From Escherichia coli (GTDB lineage Bacteria > Pseudomonadota > Gammaproteobacteria > Enterobacterales > Enterobacteriaceae): a DNA stretch of 64,000 bases. Shown here piece after piece: positions 7,369-15,704 of this stretch (positions are counted from its first letter, which is position 1; every line of letters starts with the position of its first letter). Where the stretch lies: NCBI RefSeq assembly GCF_050920415.1, contig NZ_CP169309.1. The stretch is one strand, 5' to 3'. The notes below the pieces were generated by a model, which was not told the origin of the DNA, did no database searches, and saw only the letters and a list, made by a program, of their open reading frames with translations. The position numbers were made by a program, and so were the translations under genes.

Positions 7369-9129
7369 TTGACCATTACGAAACTTGCATGGCGTGACCT
7401 GGTTCCTGATACCGATAGCTATCAGGAAATATATGCTCAGCCACATTTGATTGACGAAAACGATCCTATATTCAGTGATACTCAACCGCGACTGCAATTT
7501 GCGCTGGAGCAGTTGCTGCATACGCGAGCATCCTCCTCTTTTATGCTGGCGAAGGCCCCGGAAGAGTCTGAGTATCTGAATCTTATTGCCGATGCCGCGC
7601 GTGCGCTACAAAGCGATGCAGGCCAACTGGTGGGCGGTCACTATGAGGTTTCCGGCCACACCATCCGCTTACGTAACGCAGTGAGTGCAGATGATAATTT
7701 TGCGACTTTAACGCAAGTTGTCACTGCCGACTGGGTAGAAGCGGAACAACTCTTTGGCTGCCTGCGCCAGTTTAATGGTGACATTACCCTGCAGCCAGGT
7801 CTGGTGCATCAGGCAAATGGCGGTATTCTCATCATCTCTTTGCGTACACTGCTGGCGCAACCTCTGCTGTGGATGCGGCTGAAAAATATCGTTAACCGCG
7901 AGCGTTTTGACTGGGTTGCGTTTGACGAGTCGCGCCCTCTCCCCGTCTCTGTGCCTTCGATGCCATTGAAGCTGAAAGTCATTCTGGTAGGCGAACGCGA
8001 ATCATTAGCTGATTTCCAGGAGATGGAGCCAGAGCTTGCTGAGCAGGCTATTTATAGCGAATTTGAAGATACTCTGCAGATTGTCGATGCGGAGTCAGTA
8101 AACCAGTGGTGTCGTTGGGTGACATTTACCGCCAGACATAACCACTTACCTGCACCGGGAGCGGATGCCTGGCCGGTACTTATTCGCGAAGCCGCACGCT
8201 ACACCGGTGAACAAGAAACACTGCCGCTTAGCCCGCAGTGGATCCTCCGCCAGTGTAAAGAGGTCGCCTCACTGTGTGATGGCGACACCTTCTCCGGCGA
8301 GCAGCTAAACTTAATGTTACAGCAGCGTGAATGGCGCGAAGGTTTCCTCGCTGAACGCATGCAGGATGAGATCCTTCAGGAGCAAATCCTGATTGAAACC
8401 GAAGGCGAACGCATCGGGCAAATTAACGCCCTTTCGGTCATTGAATTTCCGGGTCATCCGCGCGCTTTTGGCGAACCTTCTCGCATTAGCTGCGTTGTAC
8501 ATATTGGCGATGGTGAATTCACTGACATCGAACGCAAAGCGGAGCTTGGCGGCAATATCCATGCGAAAGGGATGATGATCATGCAGGCGTTCCTGATGTC
8601 GGAACTTCAGCTTGAGCAACAGATCCCCTTCTCAGCATCGCTGACATTTGAGCAGTCATATAGCGAAGTGGATGGCGATAGTGCCTCAATGGCTGAACTC
8701 TGCGCCCTGATAAGCGCCCTCGCCGATGTGCCGGTGAATCAGAGTATTGCTATCACAGGTTCAGTCGATCAATTCGGTCGCGCCCAGCCAGTCGGTGGTT
8801 TAAATGAGAAAATCGAAGGCTTCTTTGCTATTTGCCAGCAACGTGAGTTAACGGGGAAACAAGGTGTCATTATCCCCACTGCTAACGTTCGCCATTTAAG
8901 TCTTCACAGTGAACTGGTGAAAGCAGTAGAGGAAGGCAAATTCACCATCTGGGCAGTAGACGATGTGACTGAAGCACTGCCGTTATTATTAAATCTGGTG
9001 TGGGATGGCGAAGGCCAAACGACGCTGATGCAAACCATCCAGGAACGTATCGCGCAAGCATCGCAACAGGAAGGACGTCACCGTTTTCCATGGCCATTAC
9101 GTTGGCTGAACTGGTTTATTCCGAACTGA
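7369..9129 (+). CDS. ycbZ: Lon-like protease homolog YcbZ
   Basis: 586-aa ORF with TTG start; C-terminal DGDSAS (Ser codon 8680-8682) resembles the Lon catalytic-Ser motif; no GxxxxGK[ST] P-loop seen by eye. Confidence 0.8.
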
Positions 9130-9140
9130 TCGGACTTGTT
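9124..9140 (+). promoter_or_regulatory. FadR operator of the fabA promoter
   Basis: aactgatcggacttgtt fits the FadR consensus ANCTGGTCNGACNTGTT; overlaps the ycbZ stop codon. Confidence 0.7.
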
Positions 9141-9141
9141 C

Positions 9142-9159
9142 AGCGTACACGTGTTAGCT
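9142..9159 (+). promoter_or_regulatory. probable FabR operator of fabA
   Basis: agcgtacacgtgttagct, palindromic around cacgtg, immediately after the FadR site as I recall for fabA. Confidence 0.5.
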
Positions 9160-9197
9160 ATCCTGCGTGCTTCAATAGAATAAGGCTTACAGAGAAC

Positions 9198-9716
9198 ATG
9201 GTAGATAAACGCGAATCCTATACAAAAGAAGACCTTCTTGCCTCTGGTCGCGGTGAACTGTTTGGCGCTAAAGGCCCGCAATTGCCAGCACCGAACATGC
9301 TGATGATGGACCGTGTCGTCAAAATGACCGAAACGGGGGGGAACTTCGACAAAGGGTATGTTGAAGCAGAACTGGATATCAATCCGGATCTGTGGTTCTT
9401 CGGATGCCACTTCATTGGCGATCCGGTTATGCCGGGATGCCTGGGTCTGGACGCAATGTGGCAGCTGGTAGGGTTCTACCTCGGCTGGCTGGGCGGCGAA
9501 GGTAAAGGCCGCGCACTGGGTGTTGGCGAAGTGAAATTCACTGGTCAGGTTCTGCCGACAGCAAAAAAAGTGACCTACCGTATTCACTTTAAACGCATTG
9601 TTAATCGTCGTCTGATTATGGGTCTGGCAGATGGCGAAGTGCTGGTTGATGGTCGTCTGATTTACACCGCCAGCGACCTGAAAGTCGGTCTGTTCCAGGA
9701 TACGTCTGCCTTCTGA
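9198..9716 (+). CDS. fabA: 3-hydroxydecanoyl-ACP dehydratase/isomerase
   Basis: 172-aa [40 protein letters not shown]...; ORF-track 9000 start is an upstream extension. Confidence 0.95.
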
Positions 9717-9743
9717 TTGAAATCAGACAGAGTATAAAAAGGC

Positions 9744-9773
9744 GAAACCTCCGCATTGCGGAGGTTTCTTTTT
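9744..9773. terminator. rho-independent terminator between convergent fabA and rmf
   Basis: stem gaaacctccgcattgcggaggtttc followed by a T-run. Confidence 0.75.
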
Positions 9774-9785
9774 AAAGAGACAGAA

Positions 9786-9953
9786 TCAGGCCATTACTAC
9801 CCTGTCCGCCATGGCTTCTCGCCAGCCTCCCAGCCATTGTGACCTTTGATTCAGCGTCTGATAGGGACACATTTCTTTTGAGCGTCCGGCGATGCCGGCC
9901 TGATAACCACGTTGATGTGCCCGTTCCAGGCGATCTCGTTTTTGTCTCTTCAT
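9786..9953 (-). CDS. rmf: ribosome modulation factor
   Basis: 55-aa MKRQKRDRLERAHQRGYQAGIAGRSKEMCPYQ... found by hand translation on the minus strand; absent from the ORF track because it is short (the 65-aa ORF 9772-9969 is a different frame). Confidence 0.85.
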   Translation of the reverse strand: MKRQKRDRLERAHQRGYQAGIAGRSKEMCPYQTLNQRSQWLGGWREAMADRVVMA

Positions 9954-10152
9954 GCCTCGTTTCCCTCATACTGGTTTCTGGTGGAAAAGAAAACAGTGAT
10001 TACTAAATGTGCAATCACAGTTAAGCAATACCGCGAATCATAACTGCCGTCAATGCGCAAAATTCACGCCACTGTCATATTTGTGAGCTACACGGGCATG
10101 TCGGTTGTACAAAAAATGTGAAGAGGAACAACTTTTTCCGCATGTTAGAAAC

Positions 10153-10186
10153 AAAAAAACCGCCTCAGGCTACATACCGGAGACGG
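10153..10186 (-). terminator. probable terminator downstream of pqiC
   Basis: minus-strand hairpin ccgtctc...gaggcgg (one G-U pair) followed by U7. Confidence 0.45.
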
Positions 10187-10208
10187 TCATATTTACAAAT
10201 CTTTATAA

Positions 10209-10772
10209 TTAAGGTAGACGCTTTATCTCTTGCGCAATAGAAGCGGCTTCCTGACTCCAGATACTGGCCAGCACCTTAACCATCTCATCGTAACCATCCT
10301 GAGTTTGCACTCCTTCCAGACGGAACGGACGTTTGATCAGTTGTCCCTGGTGGTTCAACAGCCACTCACCACTGACAATGACCTTGCCATCATAGCGCCC
10401 GTTAAACTCCGTTACGGTAACATTGAGCGTATCCTGGGCGCTTCCCAGAGGCTGGGAGGCAACCACCCAGCCAGGCAGTTGCGTGCTCAGGTTGGCAACC
10501 AGAGTGTTGCGCAACTGTTGATCCAACGGGCTGGCCCACAAGTTGTTGTTGGCAATCACATACTTCACATCACTGGTTTGATAAACCACACCATTCCCCG
10601 CCAAATAGTCAGGAACAGCGACCTGCTCTACCCATAACAGGTGATTACCCTGGCTGGCGGTACTTTGTGTACCGCTCTGCACCACAGGTAGCTGGTAATA
10701 GTTTTTATTGATCTCGCCGGAGCTGCATCCGGCCAGCCACAGTGCCGCAATCGTTACTAGCCACTTTTTCAT
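10209..10772 (-). CDS. pqiC: lipoprotein PqiC (YmbA) of the Pqi intermembrane transport system
   Basis: 187 aa with lipobox LAGC; 4-bp overlap with pqiB. Confidence 0.9.
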   Translation of the reverse strand: MKKWLVTIAALWLAGCSSGEINKNYYQLPVVQSGTQSTASQGNHLLWVEQVAVPDYLAGNGVVYQTSDVKYVIANNNLWASPLDQQLRNTLVANLSTQLPGWVVASQPLGSAQDTLNVTVTEFNGRYDGKVIVSGEWLLNHQGQLIKRPFRLEGVQTQDGYDEMVKVLASIWSQEAASIAQEIKRLP

Positions 10773-12409
10773 TGTTTCGCCCTCTTCGGCTCTGGATCTT
10801 TTTTGTCCTTCGCTTCAAATACCAGCGCGTTACTCTTCTCGTTGAGCGTTTTCAGCACCGGCTGCAGTTCACGCAACACCTGATCAAGGCGCTGCATATC
10901 CGCCACCATCTTGTTGTAGGCTGCGGAGCCAGGCTGGAAGCCCTGCATACTGCGATTCAACTCACGTAATGTAGACTGCATATCGGTCGGCAACTGCTGC
11001 ATCGACTGGCTGGCGAGGATCTTGTTCATGCTATCCAGCGTCGTTTGCAGGTTTTTCATGGTGCGCTGACTTTCAGAAAGCGTACTGGTCGCCTGCTCAA
11101 TCATCGGATTCAATGGCAGTTTGTTGATCTTATCCAACGCTTCCATCAGACGCTGCTGGATTTGCGCCAGGCCACCGCTAACGGTCGGGATAATCTGATA
11201 ACCATTAAACTCACGAATACCGGTAATAGCAGGGCTATTTGGATAGAAATCGAGATCAACATACAGTGCGCCAGTGACCAGATTTCCGGTCTTCAGCGAT
11301 CCGCGTAAACCACGTTTCAACAATTCGCCAAGGTGCTCAACAACATCCGCATTTTCACCAAGCTGCATTTTCAGCCGCTCTGGTTCGATACGAATCAGTA
11401 CCGGAATACGGTAATCATCGTTAAATGTCTGACGCATATTCGGCGCAAAGAATGGCACTTTGCTTACGGTACCCAGGCGAATACCCCGGAATTCTACCGG
11501 AGCTCCCGGTTGCAGACCGCGTACCGAATCTTTAAAGAACATCAGATAATCAATGTGATCGGTGTACAACGAATCCTGAATGCTCTTCTGATCATCATAC
11601 AAAACGAAAGCTGTTTTCGGTGCCACTGGCTGCCCTAAATCCAGACCTTCCGGCACATCAAAGCTGACACCGCCACTAAGCAGCGTTGTCAATGAGCCCA
11701 TCTCCACACGCATTCCCGCTGACGTCAAATCAACCGCAATGCCACTATCTTTCCAGAAGCGAACATTGCTGGTCACCAGTCGGTCATAAGGTGCATTGAT
11801 GAACAGTTGATAGCTGATATTGCGTTTTTGCGTATCGAAGGTGCTGGTTTCAACCGAACCTACCCGATAGCCACGGAACAGCACGGGATCTCCTGGCGAG
11901 AGCTGCCCGGCTTTTTTGCTATCGAGAATCACACGGATACCTTTCGCATCAGGCGGGGCCAACGGTGGCGAGTCCAGCAAATCGTATTTATCCATTTTGC
12001 TGCCTTTCGCGCCTGGCTGCAGTTCGATATAAACCCCAGACAGCAGCGTTCCCAGGCCGCTAATCCCTTCTCGACCAATCTGCGGTTTCACCACCCAAAA
12101 GACGGTATCTTTATGCAGCAATTTTTCCATACCGGAATTCAGCCGCGCTTTGATTTCAACGTGCGTCAAATCATCAGCCAGTGTGGCGCTTTCAACCACG
12201 CCGACGTCAACGCTACGGCTTTTAATGGTGGTTTTACCACCTTCTATTCCTTCCGCATTCGCGGTGATCAGGGTCACTTCCGGCCCCTGATGGCTGTAAT
12301 GATAAAAAAGAACCCAGGCCCCAATGAGCGCCGTGACGATAGGAAATATCCACACGGGAGACCAGTTCTTCACTTTCTGGATTTTGGCTTCCCCATTATT
12401 AGATTCCAT
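10769..12409 (-). CDS. pqiB: MCE-domain protein PqiB
   Basis: 546 aa from MESNNGEAKIQKV...; ORF-track start at 12469 is an upstream extension overlapping pqiA. Confidence 0.9.
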   Translation of the reverse strand: MESNNGEAKIQKVKNWSPVWIFPIVTALIGAWVLFYHYSHQGPEVTLITANAEGIEGGKTTIKSRSVDVGVVESATLADDLTHVEIKARLNSGMEKLLHKDTVFWVVKPQIGREGISGLGTLLSGVYIELQPGAKGSKMDKYDLLDSPPLAPPDAKGIRVILDSKKAGQLSPGDPVLFRGYRVGSVETSTFDTQKRNISYQLFINAPYDRLVTSNVRFWKDSGIAVDLTSAGMRVEMGSLTTLLSGGVSFDVPEGLDLGQPVAPKTAFVLYDDQKSIQDSLYTDHIDYLMFFKDSVRGLQPGAPVEFRGIRLGTVSKVPFFAPNMRQTFNDDYRIPVLIRIEPERLKMQLGENADVVEHLGELLKRGLRGSLKTGNLVTGALYVDLDFYPNSPAITGIREFNGYQIIPTVSGGLAQIQQRLMEALDKINKLPLNPMIEQATSTLSESQRTMKNLQTTLDSMNKILASQSMQQLPTDMQSTLRELNRSMQGFQPGSAAYNKMVADMQRLDQVLRELQPVLKTLNEKSNALVFEAKDKKDPEPKRAKQ

Positions 12410-12413
12410 ACTG

Positions 12414-13667
12414 TCAGGACTCCTCATGCTCTGATTCAGGTTGACGATCCCACGACAAACGCGGGTCAAACGTCATCGCAGAAAACATTGTCATTATGAC
12501 GACTAAAGCAAACATTAATGCACCCATTGCTGGATAAATACTCATTAAACCTCCCATACGCACCAGCGCCGAGAGCACCGCGATGACGAAAACGTCAATC
12601 ATTGACCAGCGGCCTACAAACTCTACAACTTCGTAAATCAAATGCATTCTTTCACTGTCGCGCTTGCCATGCCCTTTGGCATCCCAGCACAGCCAGCCAA
12701 TCGCAATCATCTTTAACGTTGGCACCATAATACTGGCCAGGAAGATAACCGCAGCGACGGGATAAGAGCCTTCACTCCATAATAAGATGACACCAGCAAG
12801 AATCGTCGACGGCATTTTCGAGCCTAATAAATCCGTCACCATGATGGGCAAAATATTCGCCGGGAGATACAGCATGATGGACGTAACAAGCAGTGCGAGT
12901 GTCCATTGCAGGCTGTTTCTACGTCGAACGTATCCTTTCGTGCCACAGCGTGGGCACACTGGATCACCAGCTGGAAGAATTGCCGTGCAACAGGAGCACG
13001 AACGCAGCCCCTGACGTATCCCCGTGACGCCCGGTTTTAGCGGCTGACGCAATTCTGGCATTGGGGCGATATCGTCCCATAACCAGCGACGATCAACGCA
13101 CTGAAAGGCGCGCAGTTGCAGGACACAAAATAAACACCATGGGAGAAAGCTGCTGCCTACACCAATGCTGCCGTAGGCCATCAGTTTAACGAAACTCACC
13201 AGCACACCGGCGAGGAAAATCTCCGCCATTCCCCATGTTTTGAGTTGAAAAAGCACCCGTGCCAGTTGCTCTTTTAAACGGACCGGTAATTGTGCGCGAT
13301 TAACCAGTAACAGAATAGTTATCAGGCAAAAAGCGGGAACCAGTTGCACAAACAACAGGAAAAAGGTGCCGAGGCTGGCGTAGTCCTCAGAAAAAAGCAC
13401 GCTGGGAATTTCCAGTAATGTAATTTCACTGGTGACTCCTGCAACGTTCATTTTCACAAAAGGAAACAAGTTGGACAGCAACAGCATGAACAGTGCAGCC
13501 AACGCATAGGCGGTGGGACGCTGCCGAGGGGCATCCCACGCCACGGTTAACGTTGTGCCACACCGGGGACATGCCGCTTTCTGACCATGCTCAAGGCGCG
13601 GTAACGCCACCAGCATGTCACACTGCGAGCACAGGATGTGCTTCGCGGCATGATGATGTTCGCACAT
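12414..13667 (-). CDS. pqiA: paraquat-inducible inner membrane protein PqiA
   Basis: 417 aa with paired CxxC zinc-ribbon-like motifs and hydrophobic segments. Confidence 0.9.
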   Translation of the reverse strand: MCEHHHAAKHILCSQCDMLVALPRLEHGQKAACPRCGTTLTVAWDAPRQRPTAYALAALFMLLLSNLFPFVKMNVAGVTSEITLLEIPSVLFSEDYASLGTFFLLFVQLVPAFCLITILLLVNRAQLPVRLKEQLARVLFQLKTWGMAEIFLAGVLVSFVKLMAYGSIGVGSSFLPWCLFCVLQLRAFQCVDRRWLWDDIAPMPELRQPLKPGVTGIRQGLRSCSCCTAILPAGDPVCPRCGTKGYVRRRNSLQWTLALLVTSIMLYLPANILPIMVTDLLGSKMPSTILAGVILLWSEGSYPVAAVIFLASIMVPTLKMIAIGWLCWDAKGHGKRDSERMHLIYEVVEFVGRWSMIDVFVIAVLSALVRMGGLMSIYPAMGALMFALVVIMTMFSAMTFDPRLSWDRQPESEHEES

Positions 13668-13796
13668 TGGTACTCCTTAATGATGCGCTATTATACAGAT
13701 TGCTAACAAAGCGCTGGTTTTCGTGCCAGATAAACGTTACACATCTGGCAATTTTACCGTTGTCAGCAGCCTCTGTTTAAATCGACTATTTTGCGA

Positions 13797-15704
13797 TCAG
13801 CCACCATTTTTTAACGCTTCAAGATACTCCCAGCGTTCAAAGGCTTGCTCCAGCTCCTGCTCCGCAGCAGCCATATCAGCGAGCACTTTTTGCGTCTGCT
13901 CATGCGGCTGACTAAAGAAGGCAGCATCCGCCACCTGCGTCTGTAGGGCTTCCAGCTTCGCCTCCAGCTCTTCGAGCAATTGCGGCAGTTGCTCCAATTC
14001 GCGCTGCAATTTATAGCTTAGTTTGCTACTGCTGCGTTTTACAGTTTCTGCTTTTGGCGCGGCGGCTTCTTCGGTTTTTTTCACCGCAGGCTGTTTAAGC
14101 GCCACATACTGTTCTTGCTGACCACGGGCATCATGATAACCGCCGACATAACGACCAATTTTACCGCCGCCTTCGAAGATCCAGCATTCTGTAACCGTGT
14201 TATCGACAAACTGACGATCGTGGCTCACCAGCAATACCGTGCCCTGGTAGCTGTCGATCAGTTCTTCCAGCAATTCCAGCGTTTCGACATCAAGGTCGTT
14301 GGTCGGTTCGTCAAGAATCAATAAGTTGCTTGGTTTGAGGAACAAACGCGCCAACAACAAGCGGTTACGCTCACCGCCAGATAGCGCACGTACCGGCGTC
14401 ATCGCCCGTTTCGGATGGAACAGGAAGTCCTGCAAATAACCCAGTACATGGCGTGGTTTGCCATTTACCATCACCTCTTGTTTGCCTTCGGCCAGGTTAT
14501 CCATCACCGTTTTATCGGGATCCAGTTCCGCGCGGTGCTGATCGAAATAAGCCACTTCCAGTTTGGTACCGACGTGAATACGTCCGCTATCTGGTTGAAG
14601 TTGATCTAGCATCAGTTTCAGCAGCGTGGTTTTGCCGCAGCCGTTCGGACCAATCAAGGCAATTTTGTCGCCACGTTGAACCTGGGCAGAAAAATCTTTC
14701 ACCAGTTGCTTACCGTCAACCTGGTAGCAAACGTCTTCCATTTCGAAAACGATCTTACCGGAGCGGCTGGCCTCTTCCACCTGCATCTTCGCCGTCCCCA
14801 TGACCTCACGGCGCTGGCTACGTTCACGGCGCATTGCTTTCAGGGCGCGTACGCGGCCTTCATTACGGGTACGGCGCGCTTTGATCCCCTGGCGGATCCA
14901 CACCTCTTCCTGCGCCAGTTTGCGATCGAACTCGGCATTTTGTAGTTCTTCCACGCGCAGGGCTTCTTCTTTTTCCAGCAGGTACTGGTCGTAATTGCCA
15001 GGATAGGTCACCAGCTTGCCGCGATCGAGATCGACAATGCGCGTCGCCATATTGCGGATAAACGAACGGTCGTGGGAGATGAAAATAATCGTCCCATTGA
15101 AGGTTTTGAGGAACCCTTCCAGCCAGTCGATGGTTTCGATATCCAGGTGGTTGGTGGGTTCATCAAGCAACAGCACGCGCGGATTACTCACCAGCGCACG
15201 TCCCAACGCCGCTTTACGCAGCCAGCCGCCGGAAAGCGATGACAGCGCAACGTTAGGATCTAACCCCAGCTGTGCCAGCACTTCGTTAATGCGGTTTTCC
15301 AGCTGCCACAGGTTGTGGTGATCCAACTGTTCCTGAACCTTCGCCAGTTCGTTGAGATTTTTCTCGCTCGGGTCGTTCATCACCAGGCGCGAAATATCGT
15401 GATAGCGTTTCAGGTATTCCGCTTGTTCTTCAATGCCTTCGGCAACGAAATCATAAACGCTACCCTCAACGTTACGCGGCGGATCCTGTTGCAGACGAGC
15501 GACAATCAAATCTTGCTCGTAAATAATGCGACCGTCATCCAGCCCTTGTTCACGGTTGAGGATTTTCATTAACGTCGATTTGCCTGCGCCGTTACGGCCT
15601 ACCAGACAAACACGTTCGTTATCTTCGATATGCAGTTCTGCGTTATCGAGAAGCGGCGCGTCGCTGAACGACAGCCATGCGCCATGCATACTGATTAATG
15701 ACAT
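13797..15704 (-). CDS. uup: ABC-F family ATPase Uup
   Basis: 635 aa with two Walker A motifs (GRNGAGKST, GPNGCGKTT) and two LSGG signatures, no transmembrane segments. Confidence 0.95.
   Translation of the reverse strand: MSLISMHGAWLSFSDAPLLDNAELHIEDNERVCLVGRNGAGKSTLMKILNREQGLDDGRIIYEQDLIVARLQQDPPRNVEGSVYDFVAEGIEEQAEYLKRYHDISRLVMNDPSEKNLNELAKVQEQLDHHNLWQLENRINEVLAQLGLDPNVALSSLSGGWLRKAALGRALVSNPRVLLLDEPTNHLDIETIDWLEGFLKTFNGTIIFISHDRSFIRNMATRIVDLDRGKLVTYPGNYDQYLLEKEEALRVEELQNAEFDRKLAQEEVWIRQGIKARRTRNEGRVRALKAMRRERSQRREVMGTAKMQVEEASRSGKIVFEMEDVCYQVDGKQLVKDFSAQVQRGDKIALIGPNGCGKTTLLKLMLDQLQPDSGRIHVGTKLEVAYFDQHRAELDPDKTVMDNLAEGKQEVMVNGKPRHVLGYLQDFLFHPKRAMTPVRALSGGERNRLLLARLFLKPSNLLILDEPTNDLDVETLELLEELIDSYQGTVLLVSHDRQFVDNTVTECWIFEGGGKIGRYVGGYHDARGQQEQYVALKQPAVKKTEEAAAPKAETVKRSSSKLSYKLQRELEQLPQLLEELEAKLEALQTQVADAAFFSQPHEQTQKVLADMAAAEQELEQAFERWEYLEALKNGG

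Follow-up and report, generated by a model that had tools for sequence, protein, structure and literature searches.

The window analysed here, a 64,000-nt stretch of Escherichia coli DNA, belongs to the E. coli core chromosome and is matched in 5,425 of 5,426 complete E. coli genomes; the annotations beneath the matched chromosomes name pqiA, pqiB, pqiC, rmf, fabA, and uup. On the minus strand the genes of interest run in the order pqiA (12414-13667), pqiB (10769-12409), pqiC (10209-10772), and rmf (9786-9953). A gap of 4 bp (12410-12413) separates pqiA from pqiB, an ATGA at 10769-10772 forms a 4-bp overlap between pqiB and pqiC, and 255 bp lie between the pqiC stop and the rmf start, both on the minus strand. 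The tight three-gene packing described in a sequence-only reading of this DNA is borne out by the coordinates, and in all 78 Enterobacteriaceae loci that were compared pqiA, pqiB, and pqiC are contiguous in this order on one strand with a pqiB/pqiC overlap of -4 or -1. PqiA, PqiB, PqiC, and RMF have Pfam and NCBIfam matches with E-values from 1e-22 to 1e-259, and each of the four also matches a curated equivalog model and a solved structure. The observation holds but is unremarkable: pqiABC and rmf are already known E. coli loci of textbook standing, their structures solved and their regulation mapped, and they carry little weight as a discovery.

The pqiA product is an inner-membrane subunit of 417 aa (TGA stop at 12414-12416). 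It has two PqiA/LetA modules, and a CxxC...CxxC zinc ribbon stands ahead of each; the first ribbon motif lies at residues 13-36 and the second within an SCSCC...CPRC segment. It matches PF04403 in two stretches (E = 6.5e-93) and the NCBIfam equivalog NF011683 with 839 bits (cut-off 562), and its nearest solved homologue is LetA/YebS (9N8W, E = 1.4e-42). The MCE-domain protein PqiB has 546 aa when counted from the annotated ATG; in the mechanical ORF list the frame extends to an upstream TTG at 12469. Three stretches of PqiB match the Pfam MlaD model, the equivalog NF008070 is matched with 863 bits (cut-off 525) and PDB 5UVN with E = 9.8e-263, and the N-terminal hydrophobic segment is WSPVWIFPIVTALIGAWVLFY. 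The outer-membrane lipoprotein PqiC (187 aa; gene formerly ymbA) begins with MKKWLVTIAALWLAGCSSGE, carries the lipobox L-A-G-C16, and matches PF03886 (ABC_trans_aux, DUF330; E = 1.4e-40), NF033620 (285 bits, cut-off 200), and PDB 8Q2C (E = 4e-121). Antisense ORFs of 230, 135, 101, and 95 aa within the operon gave no matches in a Pfam search and were treated as shadow ORFs.

The PqiABC architecture (PMC10897342) and the LetA-like family (PMC13017536) have been described, and a phospholipid transport and membrane-integrity phenotype is established for K-12 PqiABC (PMC10897342, PMC13017536). PqiA, which belongs to the LetA-like family, sits in the inner membrane and has two modules that each combine a zinc ribbon with a transmembrane part. 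PqiB forms a hexameric syringe of three MCE rings and a coiled-coil needle about 230 Å long, and PqiC forms an octameric lipoprotein ring at the outer membrane. Together the three build an envelope-spanning conduit that is thought to carry phospholipids between both membranes. One mRNA would serve for translation of all three genes; the 4-bp gap and the ATGA overlap agree with translational coupling within pqiABC. Protein identity of 97-99% to K-12 suggests that PqiABC of the present strain also transports phospholipids. The E. coli paralogue LetAB (YebST; PDB 9N8W, 6V0C) likewise combines a LetA-like inner-membrane protein, again with two modules of zinc ribbon and transmembrane part, and a periplasm-spanning protein that carries several MCE domains. 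LetB, however, is built of seven MCE rings and lacks a counterpart of PqiC, whereas PqiB has three MCE domains plus the needle and requires the separate lipoprotein PqiC (PMC10897342, PMC13017536). The Mla system (MlaFEDB-MlaC-MlaA) also uses MCE domains for lipid trafficking in the Gram-negative envelope, and it is the MlaD model that the MCE domains of PqiB match; Mla relies on an ABC ATPase/permease and a soluble periplasmic shuttle, unlike PqiABC, which forms a continuous bridge and has no ATPase of its own (PMC10897342).

Compared with K-12 pqiABC (b0950-b0952; PqiB 5UVN, PqiC 8Q2C), the present locus has the same genes, order, and protein lengths (417/546/187 aa), the same 4-bp gap and 4-bp overlap, the same terminator position, and the same flanking genes. 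It is an allelic variant only, with 7 substitutions in PqiA, 2 in PqiB, and 4 in PqiC. Nucleotide identity to K-12 is 95.2% in pqiA and 87.6% in the uup-pqiA spacer. The rmf coding sequence and the proximal 178 bp upstream of it are 100% identical to K-12 (b0953), and the pqiC-rmf spacer differs at 5 positions, all within the 77 nt nearest pqiC, in or beside the terminator; two of them lie in the hairpin or the loop, yet strong folding of the hairpin is retained.

The likely terminator noted earlier downstream of pqiC is borne out at the sequence level as an intrinsic terminator at 10153-10188 (minus strand), with a stem at 10188/10186-10160 followed by U7 at 10159-10153. The hairpin has a minimum free energy of -17.8 kcal/mol (z = -4.9), and none of 200 shuffled sequences folds as well. 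A simple consensus scan misses this element because of an interior mismatch and the scan's definition of a loop. An equivalent GC-rich hairpin with a U-tract was found 3' of pqiC in 78/78 Enterobacteriaceae species vs 3 of 390 coding controls; in every species the U-tract begins 47-61 nt past the pqiC stop. Serratia, Pantoea, Edwardsiella, and Moellerella, which represent four further Enterobacterales families, have such an element too. The stem varies in sequence from genus to genus, and 44 distinct stem starts occur among the 78 species. Since hairpin and U-tract are kept despite complete turnover of the stem sequence, the terminator between pqiC and rmf appears to be under clear purifying selection for its function and not for its sequence. 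Transcription of pqiABC would end at a strong intrinsic terminator 20-55 nt past the pqiC stop.

The gene rmf (9786-9953, minus strand) encodes ribosome modulation factor, a small basic protein of 55 aa, and its placement downstream on the same strand in the sequence-only reading was right. The protein matches PF04957 (E = 1.7e-22) and the equivalog NF011162 (E = 1.4e-26), as well as chains in the hibernating-ribosome structures 6H4N (identical) and 4V8G. Across the Enterobacteriaceae the pqiC-rmf spacer is confined to 243-269 bp, and a block of about 180 bp upstream of rmf (about 10130-9954) is almost invariant in a conservation profile. This block contains the promoter-like element TTGACG-17-TATTGC (10025-10053, minus strand). 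At or near the 5' end of the leader lies a conserved hairpin of 8 bp (9996-10018, minus strand) followed by an invariant U-rich tract (9995-9983). In the comparison 94% of cells are paired, compensatory changes occur in 4 of the 8 pairs, and 24 cells are altered on both sides vs at most 4 in slid controls; covariation supports the hairpin. The Pseudomonas rmf motif is an Rfam entry; an Rfam scan of 9000-14500 at E <= 1 gave no match to it and no known RNA family, and yielded just sub-threshold leader-like matches on the rmf/fabA terminator. According to PMC6134199, rmf forms a transcription unit by itself, driven by one RpoD (sigma-70) promoter at -58 from the rmf ATG; the 256-bp pqiC-rmf spacer served there as promoter probe, and ppGpp and cAMP-CRP regulate the gene. 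In the present strain the distal, conserved portion of the 255-bp spacer would supply rmf with a sigma-70 promoter of its own, controlled by ppGpp, cAMP-CRP, and several stress regulators. In stationary phase RMF dimerises 70S ribosomes, and the resulting 100S particles are inactive.

The sequence-only reading had left a regulatory link between pqiABC and rmf unexplored. Such a link might arise by leaky termination, part of the pqiABC transcripts passing 10153-10188 into rmf, so that oxidative-stress or stationary-phase induction of pqiABC adds RMF and the four genes act as a functional super-operon. Intrinsic terminators are seldom 100% efficient, which counts for some read-through from pqiC to rmf, and the genes share a strand with 255 bp between them, an adjacency kept in 78/78 Enterobacteriaceae species and in the four other Enterobacterales families. 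Among the Term-seq entries listed (Adams et al., 2021, PMC7815308) no 3' end occurs at the pqiC terminator (near K-12 10154xx-10156xx), which also fits leaky termination; low pqiABC expression could explain it. Against this stand the strong hairpin and U-tract retained after pqiC in every species examined with the stem sequence fully turned over, the autonomous and highly conserved promoter and leader of rmf as a single-gene unit (PMC6134199), the presence of a terminator ahead of rmf even where it follows uup or a DUF3466 gene, and a second hairpin with U-rich tract in the rmf leader itself. We therefore consider the super-operon very unlikely. A single pqiABC-rmf operon would have neither terminator nor promoter between pqiC and rmf, and here a conserved terminator and a promoter block lie between them. 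The comparative data argue against a selected transcriptional link, because the terminator is found in 78/78 species and the region of rmf's own promoter is conserved. Termination after pqiC with rmf transcribed from its own promoter, the outcome named earlier as speaking against a link, is the better-supported state because of the conserved terminator, the conserved promoter region, and the single-gene status of rmf (PMC6134199). In all likelihood the canonical pqiABC operon of E. coli is followed here by rmf as an independent gene.

The pqiC terminator is presumably efficient and meaningful read-through from pqiC into rmf probably absent; anyone seeking a pqi-rmf regulatory link should expect small read-through. 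Koh and Roe (1995/1996) reportedly found pqi to be controlled by RpoS and SoxS. Both pqiABC and rmf reportedly react to stationary phase or stress, and correlated expression via separate promoters is possible. A literature search pairing rmf with pqiC, ymbA, or pqiB returned no paper that addresses pqiC-to-rmf read-through; PMC6134199 uses the spacer as a promoter probe, and the SMRT-Cappable-seq supplements mention rmf just as a qPCR control.

The gene order around the locus rests on an older backbone, rlmKL-uup-[slot]-rmf-fabA, in which the contents of the slot vary. In five Enterobacterales families (Enterobacteriaceae and those of Serratia, Pantoea, Edwardsiella, and Moellerella) it is occupied by pqiABC; it is empty in Plesiomonas, and in Idiomarinaceae it contains a DUF3466 gene. 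pqiABC is one among several occupants between uup and rmf, and rmf appears to be insulated from whatever lies upstream in every lineage examined. The pqiABC-rmf adjacency looks like old inherited synteny and not like a co-regulated unit. The backbone genes rlmKL and uup encode a 23S rRNA methyltransferase and a ribosome-associated ABC-F ATPase, respectively, and rmf acts in ribosome hibernation. It could be argued that rlmKL-uup-pqiABC-rmf is a functional module and not frozen synteny, linking envelope lipid transport with ribosome hibernation on entry into stress or stationary phase, either by low-level conditional read-through from pqiC into rmf or by uup-pqiABC co-transcription; we regard this as very improbable.

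The uup-pqiA junction, contiguous outside Escherichia, may be the more interesting boundary, since we know of no energy source for the PqiABC system. In the window the uup-pqiA spacer is 129 bp long (13668-13796, minus strand) and contains a sigma-70-like match TAAACA-17-TAAAAT (13779-13751), a degenerate REP-like hairpin GCCAGATGTGTAACGTTTATCTGGC (13725-13749), an extended -10 TGTATAAT (13697-13690), and the pqiA Shine-Dalgarno AAGGAG (13678-13673), all on the minus strand. E. coli-type loci have a spacer of 128-129 nt; in E. albertii and Escherichia sp. E1V33 it is longer, at 200-205 nt. The E. albertii form of the spacer hairpin occurs in at least 40 places per E. coli genome. The Escherichia spacer (128-205 bp) is an Escherichia-specific REP/BIME-type insertion. 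A longer unit in which uup, perhaps with rlmKL, is co-transcribed with pqiABC, the pqiA-proximal promoter being an Escherichia-specific addition, is conceivable but somewhat doubtful. The distance from the uup stop to the pqiA ATG is 11-18 nt in 73 sampled non-Escherichia Enterobacteriaceae (one exception at 30 nt), with room just for a Shine-Dalgarno, and it is similarly short in Moellerella (7 nt) and Pantoea (14 nt). REP/BIME-type elements are often located inside operons, and a consensus scan detected no canonical terminator between uup and pqiA; these points favour co-transcription. However, gaps of 74-86 bp occur in Serratia and Edwardsiella, the spacer in the window carries the promoter-like match and the extended -10, and K-12 pqiA is said to have its own promoters, mapped by Koh and Roe (1995/1996). 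As a separate observation, the uup/pqiA allele of the present strain is rare and divergent. The pqiA-plus-spacer allele is found at 100% identity in its own genome only and at 90-95% in 5,410 genomes, and a search for a donor of the divergent uup/pqiA patches found none of six other Escherichia loci closer than K-12.

The remaining sequence scans concerned promoters, regulator sites, and repeats. A consensus promoter scan gave fewer promoter-like matches than shuffled sequences and is uninformative for promoters. The SoxS/MarA/Rob marbox pattern (at most 2 mismatches) occurs 16 times in the window vs 17 expected, with none near pqiA, which neither supports nor refutes such control. Besides the known terminators, no short inverted repeats were found inside the pqiABC operon. 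On the other side of rmf, a perfect 12+12 palindrome between an A-run and a T-run (9744-9768) forms a bidirectional terminator for rmf (minus strand) and fabA (plus strand), and Term-seq places 3' ends on both strands at its K-12 equivalent, 1015926/7(+) and 1015897(-).

On its minus strand the window encodes pqiA (12414-13667, 417 aa), pqiB (10769-12409, 546 aa counted from the annotated ATG), pqiC (10209-10772, 187 aa) and, after pqiC, rmf (9786-9953, 55 aa). Four bases separate the pqiA stop codon TGA from the pqiB ATG, and ATGA is common to the pqiB stop and the pqiC start; both the 4-bp gap and the 4-bp overlap of the sequence-only reading were thus confirmed. Among the 5,426 complete E. 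coli genomes, 5,425 contain a 5-kb query taken around pqiABC-rmf, with strain MFDS1022581 matching it at 100%, and the annotation under the match lists uup, pqiA, pqiB, pqiC, rmf and fabA. For PqiA there are two PF04403 matches and a match to the NCBIfam PqiA equivalog; PqiB has three matches to the MlaD/MCE model in addition to the PqiB equivalog; PqiC matches ABC_trans_aux and the pqiC model, and the 55-aa ORF the RMF family model. Structural matches were 5UVN for PqiB, 8Q2C/8Q2D/6OSX for PqiC, 6H4N/4V8G for RMF and, for PqiA, the paralogue LetA in 9N8W. Two CxxC...CxxC zinc-ribbon motifs in PqiA, a hydrophobic N-terminal helix in PqiB and a LAGC lipobox in PqiC are in keeping with the families, and all this agrees with the inner-membrane, MCE and lipoprotein roles first proposed. 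Compared to K-12, PqiA differs at 7 residues, PqiB at 2, PqiC at 4 and RMF at none. We identified the four genes as pqiA, pqiB, pqiC and rmf; the pqiABC-rmf arrangement as described is correct and already known.

PqiB is a hexamer forming a three-ring barrel with a needle, ~230 A long, whose C-terminus is received by the octameric lipoprotein toroid of PqiC; PqiA resides in the inner membrane, its sole homologue is LetA, and its energy source has not been identified (PMC10897342). pqiABC would be expressed as one translationally coupled mRNA for this envelope-spanning lipid conduit, the transcript would stop at the 10153-10188 terminator, and the rmf transcript would be made separately.

A genome scan with PqiA gave 80 loci, each from a different Enterobacteriaceae species, 78 of them long enough to judge. 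All 78 have uup-pqiA-pqiB-pqiC-rmf on the same strand, and fabA is convergent in 73. The pqiC-rmf spacer is kept at 243-269 bp and always opens with a GC-rich hairpin and U-tract. In the window, the fold of 10153-10190 is a 9+3-bp hairpin (-17.8 kcal/mol) with seven U after it, and none of 200 shuffles folded as well, so the likely terminator proposed downstream of pqiC holds as a sequence feature; the consensus scan was blind to it only because of an interior mismatch. Under one fixed threshold, which asked for a hairpin at least as stable as -10 kcal/mol directly adjoining 8 nt with 6 or more T, 78/78 spacers passed vs 3/390 coding controls. The spacer hairpins have a median dG of -20.9 and 44 different stem starts; therefore the function is kept while the stem sequence turns over. 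In the Term-seq tables (PMC7815308) the bidirectional rmf/fabA terminator has strong 3' ends and the pqiC terminator has none, which is consistent with low pqiABC expression.

The remainder of the spacer (~10130-9954) is almost invariant and contains TTGACG-17-TATTnn and the rmf leader. The 256-bp spacer is exactly what PMC6134199 takes as the rmf promoter; in that work rmf is a single-gene transcription unit under ppGpp and cAMP-CRP regulation, its only promoter being an RpoD promoter at -58. The literature searched for rmf with pqi genes yielded no test of pqiC to rmf read-through. Together, the comparative data and the literature strongly support insulation of rmf from pqiABC transcription, and we consider residual read-through from pqiC of a level that matters to rmf very improbable.

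We also inspected the contigs of RMF homologues from Serratia, Pantoea, Edwardsiella, Moellerella, Plesiomonas, Pseudoalteromonas, Thalassotalea and one Idiomarinaceae genome (loci L084-L091). The first four have rlmL-uup-pqiABC-rmf-(fabA)-lon-like; Plesiomonas has rlmL-glrx-uup-rmf without pqiABC, and the Idiomarinaceae genome rlmL-glrx-uup-DUF3466-rmf-fabA-lon-like. Pseudoalteromonas retains rmf-fabA only, and Thalassotalea neither the backbone nor the rmf-fabA pairing. In each surveyed case outside Enterobacteriaceae a hairpin and U-tract precede the rmf promoter region. The simplest reading is that rlmL-uup-[slot]-rmf-fabA is an old backbone with pqiABC as the Enterobacterales occupant of the slot between uup and rmf, and that rmf is insulated from any upstream neighbour, whatever the gene. 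This backbone, in full rlmL-(glrx-like)-uup-[slot]-rmf-fabA-lon-like (ycbZ), is also seen outside Enterobacterales; five Enterobacterales families have pqiABC in the slot, which is empty in Plesiomonas and has a DUF3466 gene in Idiomarinaceae. pqiABC is flanked by the ribosome-related genes rlmKL, uup and rmf. In Serratia (L084, 6369-8747), genes for an IS200/IS605-type Y1 transposase, a ketoacyl synthase and an HxlR regulator lie between rmf and fabA, and therefore this junction is also an insertion site.

Within the rmf leader there is a conserved 8-bp hairpin (10018-9996, minus; GUGAUUGC...GUAAUCAC), followed by an invariant U-rich tract, the element spanning 9983-10018 (minus); the MFE fold pairs this tract with the invariant Shine-Dalgarno region. 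In alignment A1 of 44 Enterobacterales leader sequences, the predicted hairpin is 94% paired with compensatory changes at 4/8 pairs, and 24 doubly changed cells compared to at most 4 in slid controls; covariation thus supports it. A start at the published -58 (~10011) would truncate the hairpin, with the 5' arm 10018-10011 missing. Either rmf starts farther upstream, at ~10018, 7 nt past the conserved TATTGC, or the hairpin acts on other transcripts.

Beyond rmf, at 9744-9768, there is a perfect 12+12 palindrome with an A-run on one side and a T-run on the other, which serves as a bidirectional terminator common to the convergent rmf and fabA; Term-seq 3' ends lie at its K-12 equivalent, 1015926/7 (+) and 1015897 (-) (PMC7815308). 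The supplement of Adams et al. 2021 (PMC7815308) also lists K-12 1015276(-), a region antisense to ymbA/pqiC (window ~10392, plus), in a table that we read as Rho-termination regions. This entry implies antisense transcription into the pqiC 3' end from the rmf/fabA side.

Upstream, uup and pqiA are 11-18 nt apart in most of 73 non-Escherichia Enterobacteriaceae species (30 nt in one), and these 11-18-nt spacers hold just a Shine-Dalgarno. E. coli-type loci have a uup-pqiA spacer of 128-129 nt (window 13668-13796, minus); in E. albertii and Escherichia sp. E1V33 it reaches 200-205 nt and includes two inverted REPs. Judging from these spacers, the extra DNA is an Escherichia-specific, REP/BIME-like insertion. 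The E. albertii hairpin sequence has at least 40 sites per E. coli genome, and the window retains one degenerate REP hairpin (13725-13749), in which a compensatory A/T swap compared with K-12 preserves the stem. At 13690-13697 (minus), 22 nt before the pqiA ATG, there is a perfect extended -10, TGTATAAT (TGTAAAAT in K-12), which could increase the basal transcription of pqiABC in this strain. The strain's allele over ~12414-15300 (pqiA, spacer and uup) is rare and diverges patchily. Its pqiA and spacer portion is 100% identical in its own genome only; 14 genomes match it at 95-99% and 5,410 at 90-95%. Among six other Escherichia lineages no donor closer than K-12 was found. Per 200 bp, K-12 identity is as low as 89-92% near 12868 and 14668-14868, with flanks at 98-99%, and the reading frames of the divergent uup and pqiA are intact.
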